Source: a virus (lineage: Duplodnaviria; Heunggongvirae; Uroviricota; Caudoviricetes). From it: 53,015 nt of DNA. Numbering within the stretch: the first letter of the stretch is position 1; each line of letters begins with the position of its first letter. The stretch lies in the IMG/VR virus record IMGVR_UViG_3300029305_011445; one strand, given 5' to 3'. Under the pieces are notes generated by a model, which was not told the DNA's origin, did not search any database, and saw only the letters and a program-made list of their open reading frames with translations. Made by a program: the position numbers and the translations under genes. Shown here one piece after another: positions 7,778 to 14,263 of the stretch.

Positions 7778-7861
7778 TTCGGATACTTCGTATCCTGCGC
7801 AAAAGTTTTGTAAAAACTTGAAAGAATTTTCAATTCTTTTGTGCCCATCTTCGAATGTCCG
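7778..7861 (-). ncRNA. Copy 1 of a repeated three-way-junction motif
   Basis: AAAAGAA..TTCTTT and AAGTTT..AAACTT hairpins inside an outer stem. Confidence 0.45.
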
Positions 7862-9469: not shown

Positions 9470-9541
9470 AGCACGTGACGGGTGCTGGCCCCGCGTTTCT
9501 GCGTTGGCAACGCAGTGTTTTAGCTGTTAAACTACACATGC
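9470..9541 (-). tRNA. tRNA-Gly(GCC), atypical T and D loops
   Basis: Loop TTGCCAA, U73; T loop GCCAGCA; D loop lacks GG. Confidence 0.8.
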
Positions 9542-9624: not shown

Positions 9625-9846
9625 GTTTCAGAACAATGTAGTATGTTCACATTGTTCCGTTCTTAGTAACGTCTCGACAACATACGTCTCTTGCACTTGT
9701 CGCTACTAAGAACGTAACTAAACACTCCATCAAAAGGACCGCGAAACTGTAAAGAGGTTTGGAGTATTTAATTCTCTTTTGCTTCTACGAAAGAACTGTG
9801 CAAAAGTTTCTACGAAACTTTAAAGAATCTTCGATTCTTTTGCACC
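9625..9846 (-). ncRNA. Multi-hairpin structured spacer including copy 2 of the three-way-junction motif
   Basis: Long hairpins at 9631-9657, 9658-9714 and 9720-9769; GTGCA/TGCAC-closed junction at about 9798-9845. Confidence 0.5.
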
Positions 9847-12315: not shown

Positions 12316-12384
12316 CAGAAACGATGGGATTCGAACCCATGATCTTCCCGTAAAGGACACTCTGCCCGACTGAGCTACGTTTCT
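12316..12384 (-). tRNA. tRNA-like gene with collapsed anticodon arm (no assignable anticodon)
   Basis: Perfect acceptor, D and T arms; anticodon arm reduced to TCC-TTTACG-GGA. Confidence 0.65.
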
Positions 12385-12439
12385 GCGAATGCATACTTTA
12401 AGGTATACATTCTATTGCTACAACAAAACCGTTAGTAGA

Positions 12440-12523
12440 ATCATTGTAACGAAATATTGTTTGTTACCCGGATTTCAAAAGTTTCATAGAAACTTTAAAG
12501 AACCATTGATTCTTTTTACCGGG
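12440..12523 (-). ncRNA. Copy 3 of the three-way-junction motif
   Basis: Same two A/T hairpins, closed by CCCGG/CCGGG. Confidence 0.45.
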
Positions 12524-12544
12524 ATGTAAAGTCGATCCATTTTG

Positions 12545-13080
12545 TCGATCAAAGCGTTTTGTTACTGGTTTATGCTTTTAAACGAATCGCTACCAGACAA
12601 AGCATTCGTCCCTGTTTGTTTGTTGTTGCCAACAAGCACTTGGCTCTGTGCTTCTGTTTGTGTCAGTGCCCTGTATAAAAGTTTATGAAACTTTACGTTT
12701 AAATGAACCATCGCTGACACTGGTTCAACCCGTACAGTCTTTAAAGTGCGTCGGTTATATACACTATTAAATCCATTTTAATGAGCTGAGACATTGACTC
12801 ATGTACTTATCATCTATCATTGTTGGCAATGACATGTCACACAGCCGATTAAGCTGTAGATAAGAGCGACACCAGTTTCGGTTACTGGCTAACCACTGCG
12901 TTAGGTTTCATAGATTTCCGTTTGACACATTCTTCCTTGCGGGATTCAGAGATTGCAGTCTCTTAGAGTTGCATCTACTTGTACTTTTCTCACACTTTGT
13001 CTTGCGAACTCCATGTGCGTTCATATTTCAGAACGATAAGTCGCTTTTAGCCTTAACGCCGTACACACTTTTGCTTTATT
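12545..13080 (-). ncRNA. Large ornate ncRNA, about 540 nt (ROOL-like; family unverified)
   Basis: ORF-free; long-range helix 13055-13071 with 12743-12756; pseudoknot 12714-12720 with 12660-12666; many hairpins; tRNA-array context. Confidence 0.6.
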
Positions 13081-13149
13081 ATGTTTTGTATAATATGATT
13101 TCCTATTATTAAATCAGATAACACAATCCATTTGCAATAGATGTATACA

Positions 13150-13735
13150 ATAATATTCAATTGGATGATGAGGTGCACGTTTTGAATCTCCGTACCTTTT
13201 GAATACGGCCCAATTCGTCACCACCCTGCTCGTCTTGCGATCGACTTGCTTCGTAGCCAATATCCCACGTTGTCCGTGTCCGAATATCAATCAACGATTA
13301 ACATAGCACTTACGCTTGCGGCATTCGTACCATGAAACATTCAACCATCCCCGTATTTCTACGTTATTACAGTGCCTACTCTAGTTTCAAGACACCCACT
13401 CAAACCACATTTTACTAGACAGTAGTCCCTCTGAATGGAAGGTTTGGTGTAGGTTGTAATGGTTTTCCGTCAAACTCCCGATGCGTACGCTCGAAAAGTC
13501 GCAGTATATTAATTACCACTTTATCCCTGTCACCAGGTTTATTTTTAAGCTTTTGTACTTTTACGTAACCGTATTCACGTTTTGCGCGAATACAATCTCG
13601 CTTAAATACAATTACTTTCAGACCCGAAACCAGCCCGTTTGCATTTCTGCAAAAACCGTTCTACAAGACATGATCCTGCTCATAAGACTCAACTGGTATC
13701 TTATGCGTTCCCAACTGAACAGAACGGTGTTCAAA
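13150..13735 (-). ncRNA. Second large structured RNA, about 590 nt (family unknown)
   Basis: GC-enriched, ORF-free on the sense strand; nested helices; GCAA/GAAA/GTGA-capped hairpins. Confidence 0.55.
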
Positions 13736-13782
13736 AACTTTTACAAAAGGAGAAAGTTACAAAATGTTAAATCCTGTAACAG

Positions 13783-13856
13783 TTGCGGGGATTGGACTCG
13801 AACCAACGACCTCCGGGATATGAGCCCGGCGAGCTTCCAACTGCTACCACCCCGCA
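13783..13856 (-). tRNA. tRNA-fMet(CAT)
   Basis: Three G-C pairs in the anticodon stem, loop CTCATAT, U1-A72. Confidence 0.92.
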
Positions 13857-14017: not shown

Positions 14018-14038
14018 AGAAATTTATTATATTTATTA

Positions 14039-14065: not shown

Positions 14066-14263
14066 TAATTTGATATATTTTTTTCTTACCTGCCTAATTG
14101 TTTCATTTGAAACAATTGAGACAGGATTTTGCGTGACTAAAAAAGATTAATTAGAAGACAATAATAAATATGGTTTATACTTTTTACAAAGTAAAACACT
14201 TTTTCGTTTCATATATAGTATTAGGGCCAGAATTATAAAAACGAAGTAATTTTTTAAAAGATT

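Follow-up and report, generated by a model that had tools for sequence, protein, structure and literature searches.

Genomic context of the locus

The DNA analysed here, referred to throughout as the window, is a stretch of 53,015 nucleotides from a virus of the Caudoviricetes (IMG/VR record IMGVR_UViG_3300029305_011445). All 40 of its tRNA genes lie on the minus strand, from position 1979 to position 14018, and its phage-type replication genes encode helicases, an exonuclease V-like protein, NrdD and a polymerase. In protein comparisons the top matches, with about 30% identity, come from uncultured phages in human faecal samples. The collections searched contain no close relative of the phage: a distant-mode DNA search of the INPHARED phage collection (50,697 records) with 12385-13781 gave no match, exact 22-mers of the spacer hairpin and of P1 with the insertion that follows it (Table 1) are absent from viral contigs, and the neighbouring 283-aa protein has no relative in the same contigs.

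Within this array, the segment 12385-13781 sits between a tRNA-like gene and tRNA-Met and contains no ORF of at least 60 aa. A first-pass annotation, made from the letters of the sequence, had placed a large ornate noncoding RNA of about 540 nt at 12545-13080, in a block that is indeed free of such ORFs, the longest being 52 aa. A large ornate RNA is present in this phage tRNA array and is supported by covariation, and its strand is that of the tRNAs on either side. Its extent and its identity are other than had been proposed, as set out below.

Several further features were observed in the array. Between tRNA-Met and the 5' end of the RNA, the minus strand of 13655-13728 holds a decayed tRNA-like sequence of 74 nt, cloverleaf-like in shape, with an acceptor stem of 7-8 bp, a normal D arm, a T-like loop of 3 nt and, in the 'anticodon' arm, an 8-bp stem closing a 9-nt loop. 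It is called by neither ARAGORN nor the Rfam tRNA model, and the fold z-score for 13640-13781 is -3.2. The minus-strand sequences 12316-12384 and 9470-9541 score 50.8 and 49.3 bits with the Rfam tRNA model, are uncalled by ARAGORN and could represent tRNA-like genes of aberrant form. In AT-rich sequence before the first tRNAs in the array, at 14161-14189 on the minus strand, TTGTAA and TATTAT with a 17-nt spacer resemble a sigma-70 promoter. This promoter could drive a transcript spanning the tRNAs and the RNA described here, but it is a consensus match only, of a kind not enriched over shuffles.

Identity and extent of the RNA

Apart from the tRNAs found at gathering thresholds, the sole significant Rfam family in the region (E-value reporting, 12380-13790) is GOLLD (RF02032), an RNA reportedly going back to Weinberg et al. 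2009. The GOLLD model matches 12783-13226 on the minus strand over all of its positions 1-416 (81.9 bits, E 2.7e-21), a score about half of the curated gathering score of 150 bits, which is an operational cut-off rather than a biological feature. Since the score lies below this cut-off, default Rfam annotation is silent on the RNA, and at gathering thresholds the whole window returns tRNAs only, with GOLLD unreported. In the Rfam alignment the inner P19-like helix of the model is left unpaired and large indels are required. ROOL (RF03087), which the first-pass annotation had considered as a relative, gives no match at the gathering threshold in the whole window or at E up to 10 in 12380-13790. 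Thus the search with the Rfam ROOL and GOLLD models that the same annotation had recommended found GOLLD and no ROOL.

The conserved unit, as delimited by an alignment of 29 loci, with domain limits taken from alignment A2 and the Rfam match, occupies 12782-13636 on the minus strand (855 nt). The homologous span runs from 12782 to about 13544 and takes in the 5' hairpin 13620-13636, located beyond an insertion of 75 nt. Alignment resolves two domains separated by a variable linker, and in its size of about 800 nt, its variable 5' and conserved 3' domains and this linker the RNA agrees with GOLLD. The block 12545-13080 proposed before covers the GOLLD 3' domain, but this is only the back half of the RNA, joined to about 240 nt of unrelated spacer, and its part 12545-12781 has no homologue in any related locus. 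The signature motifs of GOLLD are present in invariant or near-invariant columns of alignments A2 and A3 that were matched to the Rfam consensus, namely the A-rich L14 loop, AAAGCAAAAGU, GCAA-capped hairpins and the 3' UCUCAGC hairpin. The several GCAA loops noted in the first-pass annotation are likewise real and conserved: hairpins with this loop occur near 12999-13009, 12948-12963 and 12934-12944, the 5' half has another two, and the relatives show little or no variation in the CGCAAG motifs. Elements of the RNA and of the adjoining spacer are collected in Table 1.

Table 1. Elements of the GOLLD-family RNA and the spacer downstream of it, in window coordinates
Element	Position	Strand	Evidence
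Whole GOLLD-family RNA: 5' domain, P13/P14, linker, 3' domain	12782..13636	-	nhmmer profile: 29 loci over ~780-810 nt
P1, 5'-terminal hairpin	13620..13636	-	6 pairs, 99% canonical, 4 with double changes; hairpin followed by AAUAA also in canonical GOLLDs
Lineage-specific insertion of ~75 nt with a local hairpin, between P1 and P2	13544..13619	-	missing from other members and canonical GOLLDs (alignment A4)
P2 hairpin, then conserved GAUAAAG	13522..13541	-	7 pairs, 94% canonical, 5 with double changes; common to canonical GOLLDs
Rest of 5' ('cap') domain, nested helices including GCAA-capped hairpins	13227..13521	-	consensus helices with compensatory changes
P13/P14 hairpin	13163..13226	-	Rfam GOLLD model positions 1-64; 21 pairs, 97% canonical, 16 with double changes
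L14 loop UCAAAAG	13196-13202	-	invariant in alignment A2
P15 pseudoknot, 5' strand (partner 13060-13066)	13173..13179	-	7 pairs, 100% canonical, 6 with compensatory changes
Variable AU-rich linker J13/15, without embedded tRNA in the window copy	13078..13162	-	not alignable between members
Invariant AAAGCAAAAGUG, then 3' strand of P15	13060..13077	-	invariant columns in alignments A2/A3; matches Rfam consensus AAAGCAAAAGU
Long-range helix closing the 3'-domain core, 5' strand (partner 12898-12905)	13051..13059	-	outer helix of Rfam model
Second pseudoknot helix, 5' strand (partner 12865-12870), crosses the long-range helix	13040..13045	-	6 pairs, 100% canonical, 3 with double changes
Remaining 3' domain: P16-P27 equivalents, GCAA-capped hairpins	12782..13039	-	Rfam match to model end 416; model R1 286 bits
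Terminal hairpin with UCUCAGC	12782-12801	-	part of 3' domain
Non-conserved spacer downstream of the RNA, outside it	12385..12781	-	no blastn/nhmmer match in 355 loci, only repeats within the window

Relatives and compensatory changes

Related loci were gathered from viral and metagenome contigs by pattern scans on conserved GOLLD motifs and sorted by nhmmer profiles, which yielded 29 full-length relatives of about 780-810 nt that fall into about eight lineages and share 48-64% identity with the window copy. Their contigs belong to large uncultured phages (68-196 kb where long contigs exist), some of them from human-gut assemblies. Among bacterial genome contigs, the pattern scan returned 120 loci, of which none was a true member by the nhmmer profile, and no prophage or host was found there. 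A description of this clade was not found in the papers searched that mention both GOLLD and phage.

For 18 members, RNAalifold gave a fold of 106 pairs, and compensatory changes affect 84 of these. A full-length consensus, built from domain-wise folds with one added pseudoknot, comprises 171 pairs that are 92% canonical, and compensatory double changes occur in 133 of the 171, as compared to 41-56 when partners are slid and 86+/-4 when they are permuted. Examples in the 5' domain are the helices 13302-13334 (12 bp, 10 covarying) and 13261-13289 (8 bp, 8 covarying). For the 3' domain, 23 clade members and 8 canonical GOLLDs were aligned to the clade 3'-domain model, designated R1; 96.6% of cells are paired versus 69.5% in shuffles and 31-42% when slid, and 42 of the 50 pairs are compensatory, values reached by 0 of 500 shuffles, in an alignment fitted to the model, which favours pairing, but with slid controls and independent MAFFT-based counts in agreement. 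R1 holds only 50 pairs, and RNAalifold on the 3' domain alone lost several true helices because two of them are pseudoknotted.

Run with loose settings, an all-against-all screen for covariation produced numerous false positives of 3 bp, hence only helices with high summed covariation were trusted. Three helices, pairing 13173-13179 with 13060-13066, 13051-13059 with 12898-12905 and 13040-13045 with 12865-12870, are jointly incompatible with a nested model, yet each is well supported. The long-range helix among them is represented by at least 10 different complementary sequence pairs in the relatives. For the second pseudoknot helix, the Rfam consensus has complementary gugaC and Gucac, and its assignment in canonical GOLLD is based on this complementarity within the consensus. 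As judged from these alignments, the helices and the two pseudoknots have been maintained by compensatory evolution.

The window copy forms 156 of the 171 consensus pairs (91%) and keeps 152 of the 158 near-invariant bases, and hence is intact. That it could instead be a decaying, non-functional remnant of a GOLLD is suggested by the 75-nt insertion between P1 and P2, by its unusually long flanks to the neighbouring tRNAs and by the decayed tRNA-like sequences on both sides. Pairing and base retention, which equal those of several other members, argue against decay and make it quite improbable. A shorter insertion occurs at the same spot between P1 and P2 in one relative, L112.

Relation to canonical GOLLD RNAs

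Two results separate the clade from the known members of the family. Four relatives from the clade score 71-107 bits with the Rfam model versus 308.9 bits for a canonical GOLLD (L063), and with R1 the clade members reach 205-314 bits but about 27 canonical GOLLDs 23-38 bits. By this gap in R1 scores the clade is discrete. Together with the sub-threshold Rfam score and with a clade nhmmer profile that matches no canonical GOLLD at E below 1e-3, the gap could be taken to mean a new family of large ornate RNA, or a relative of ROOL, that resembles GOLLD by convergence, much as the first-pass annotation had suggested with 'a ROOL-like RNA or a new family'.

Such a reading is very improbable, as covariance models match at full length in both directions. 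The Rfam model, with all of its positions, matches 12783-13226, and R1 in turn matches the approximately 27 canonical GOLLDs, L063 included, over its full length (positions 1-302) with E from 1e-7 to 1e-3. The order of elements and the invariant motifs are those of GOLLD, in a joint alignment the canonical sequences keep the clade helices, and the P15 pseudoknot lies at the same place with an exact counterpart in 24 canonical GOLLD loci. Clade and canonical GOLLDs also have the same 5' end, consisting of the P1 hairpin, AAUAA, the P2 hairpin and GAUAAAG. A profile of the clade 5' domain matches nine canonical loci weakly, each match being insignificant alone, and in all nine cases the strand is correct and the distance to the downstream 3' domain is 494-505 nt. 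For ROOL, the search up to E of 10 was blank. Common P1/P2, L14, the P15 pseudoknot and the 3'-domain helices thus speak against both proposals of the first-pass annotation.

Hence, the window RNA is a divergent homologue of a known family rather than a new kind of RNA, one that the Rfam rule would leave unannotated. Its homology to GOLLD is established by comparison of sequences and models, and 12782-13636 on the minus strand very probably represents one intact, divergent GOLLD-family RNA, located within the tRNA array of a large, uncultured phage.

The downstream spacer and its repeat

The spacer 12385-12781 contains much of what the first-pass annotation had built upon: the 3' arm at 12743-12756 of a proposed long-range helix, the GAACCA/UGGUUC hairpin 12705-12726, the CUGACAC at 12660-12666 and a copy of a local repeat at 12467-12523. 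On that account, a 540-nt RNA at 12545-13080 would be closed by a helix of 13055-13071 with 12743-12756 and would carry a pseudoknot between the GUGUCAG loop (12714-12720) and 12660-12666. The quoted strings are all present on the minus strand exactly where they had been placed, the complementary strings pair with -15.1 kcal/mol, a 7-nt complement to the loop exists, and 12385-12782 folds somewhat better than shuffles (z -2.8). Nevertheless, an equally good duplex arises with 9% of shuffled downstream sequences, and such a loop complement in about 14% of shuffles. The 5' arm of the proposed helix is already divided between two helices with compensatory support, 13060-13066 with 13173-13179 and 13051-13059 with 12898-12905, while its 3' arm lies beyond the end of homology at about 12782, where relatives have a tRNA within tens of bases. 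The hairpin of the pseudoknot, moreover, is part of a degenerate copy of the spacer repeat and lies outside the conserved RNA. A 540-nt RNA of this kind is therefore scarcely credible, and neither the closing helix nor the pseudoknot was retained in the description of the GOLLD-family RNA.

The repeat itself is a two-hairpin element on the minus strand, found in spacers of the tRNA array, in which AAAGAAU...AUUCUUU is followed by AAAGUUU...AAACUUU inside a closing stem. Copies lie at 7797-7844, 9798-9845 and 12467-12523, with a degenerate fourth at about 12670-12735, which contains the hairpin 12705-12726; this hairpin aligns to the first one of the motif. In addition to the GOLLD RNA, and as a complement to the main reading, 12385-12781 might encode separate small structured RNAs or processing modules built from this repeat. 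The motif recurs four times in the window, the folds of two copies are much more stable than those of shuffles (z -4.0 and -2.6) and the spacer as a whole has a fold z-score of -2.8; against this, the repeat has no homologue outside the window, the other two copies fold no better than shuffles, and four copies are too few to judge covariation. We regard such RNAs as rather unlikely.

Position in tRNA arrays and proposed assembly

A rise in expression over the lytic cycle is counted among the traits of GOLLD. The window shows the phage or prophage location beside or inside tRNA clusters that is characteristic of GOLLD, and all relatives on long enough contigs are found in same-strand tRNA arrays. 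In these, a tRNA usually follows about 10-40 nt past the 3' hairpin and another often closely precedes the RNA. Three relatives carry a tRNA within the linker (L066, 4847-4920; L100, 4579-4651; L128, 410-483), which is tRNA-Leu(GAG) in two of them, while the third has an 8-nt anticodon loop and is unassigned by ARAGORN. Both the tRNA-array location and the linker tRNA are published traits of GOLLD (PMC12286853, PMC12990946).

In several relatives (such as L066, L096 and L021; alignment A2 columns ~950-1000) a terminator-like GC hairpin with a U run was observed between the GOLLD 3' hairpin and the next tRNA, and at that place the window copy has none.

Two GOLLD RNAs have been solved by cryo-EM, the env-38 14-mer (PDB 9MEE) and the S. 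agalactiae 12-mer (9L0R), and from these two only is it known that GOLLD can assemble without protein into a closed dihedral homo-oligomer (10-, 12- or 14-mer). In the structures the L14 adenosines make an inter-subunit minor-groove contact (PMC12286853, PMC12990946). Contacts solved in 9MEE and 9L0R include L14-P21', L15-L20', L21-L21'' and L24-P21''. The invariant UCAAAAG loop of the window RNA corresponds to L14 of the solved structures. A kissing contact of the J13/15 linker (L15) with L20, as in the solved GOLLDs, has a 6-nt complement in the window, AUUGCA at about 13133-13138 with UGCAAU at about 12952-12957, but across the clade the best complement is often of 3-4 nt, which is chance level; among eight 3'-domain loops examined for linker-to-loop kissing, there was a hint for L20 only, inconsistent across the clade.

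Based on the literature and the context, the GOLLD RNA would be transcribed together with the tRNA array, and the arrangement in relatives suggests that processing of the neighbouring tRNAs would free it. The RNA would then form a 'cap' from its 5' domain and a 'ring' from its 3' domain and, by analogy with the two cryo-EM GOLLDs, could self-assemble, with no protein involved, into a closed homo-oligomeric cage of dihedral symmetry that has the linker on its inner side (PMC12286853, PMC12990946). The invariant A-rich L14 loop would presumably provide the inter-subunit minor-groove contact. As to function, our preferred guess, which is loosely held, is that the cage holds or shields translation components such as phage tRNAs during infection.

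It is possible, though on balance doubtful, that this gut/rumen phage clade constitutes a distinct GOLLD subfamily in which remodelled P18-P21 and a largely different 5' cap result in a cage stoichiometry or geometry unlike that of the solved 12- and 14-mers, and that the spacer 12385-12781 in addition encodes small structured RNAs, built from the two-hairpin repeat and released from the tRNA array by processing. If such a subfamily exists, the clade merits a model of its own. Very few natural RNAs other than GOLLD are known to form cages without protein, and the present work adds a well-sampled divergent clade of 29 full-length copies, down to about 48% identity, from contigs of large uncultured phages. 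As the clade is unannotated at the Rfam threshold, it can improve the GOLLD family model; it also gives strong compensatory evidence for helices and two pseudoknots, and provides new sequences for testing how differences in secondary structure set cage size. At the same time, the claim of a new RNA family at this locus is removed.

Comparison with known large phage RNAs

ROOL (RF03087) resembles the window RNA in being a large ornate RNA of phages and prophages near tRNA genes and forms an RNA-only cage (PMC12286853), but its model finds nothing in the window RNA at E up to 10. In the GOLLDs of Mycobacterium tRNA arrays, a tRNA may sit in the single-stranded J13/15 linker (Morgado et al. 2020 via PMC12990946; PMC6582537). 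They share with the clade the embedding in tRNA arrays and a linker tRNA such as that of L066, L100 and L128, whereas they lie on bacterial chromosomes or accessory islands and reach the Rfam threshold, the clade being found on large uncultured phage contigs and the window copy having no embedded tRNA.

From canonical GOLLD (RF02032) the clade differs in having GACUUAU in place of GACUAAU and AAAGUG in place of AAAGUC, in a longer and shifted inner helix around the P20/P21 hairpins and in a 5' domain most of which cannot be aligned to canonical copies at the sequence level, to which the window copy adds the 75-nt insertion after P1. In common with canonical GOLLD are the length (about 800-850 nt), a variable linker that connects the 5' domain to a conserved 3' domain, the P13/P14 hairpin with its UCAAAAG loop, the AAAGCAAAAGU motif, the P15 pseudoknot, the long-range closing helix, GCAA-capped hairpins, the terminal UCUCAGC hairpin, the 5' P1/P2 and the setting within tRNA arrays of phages, where the linker sometimes contains a tRNA.
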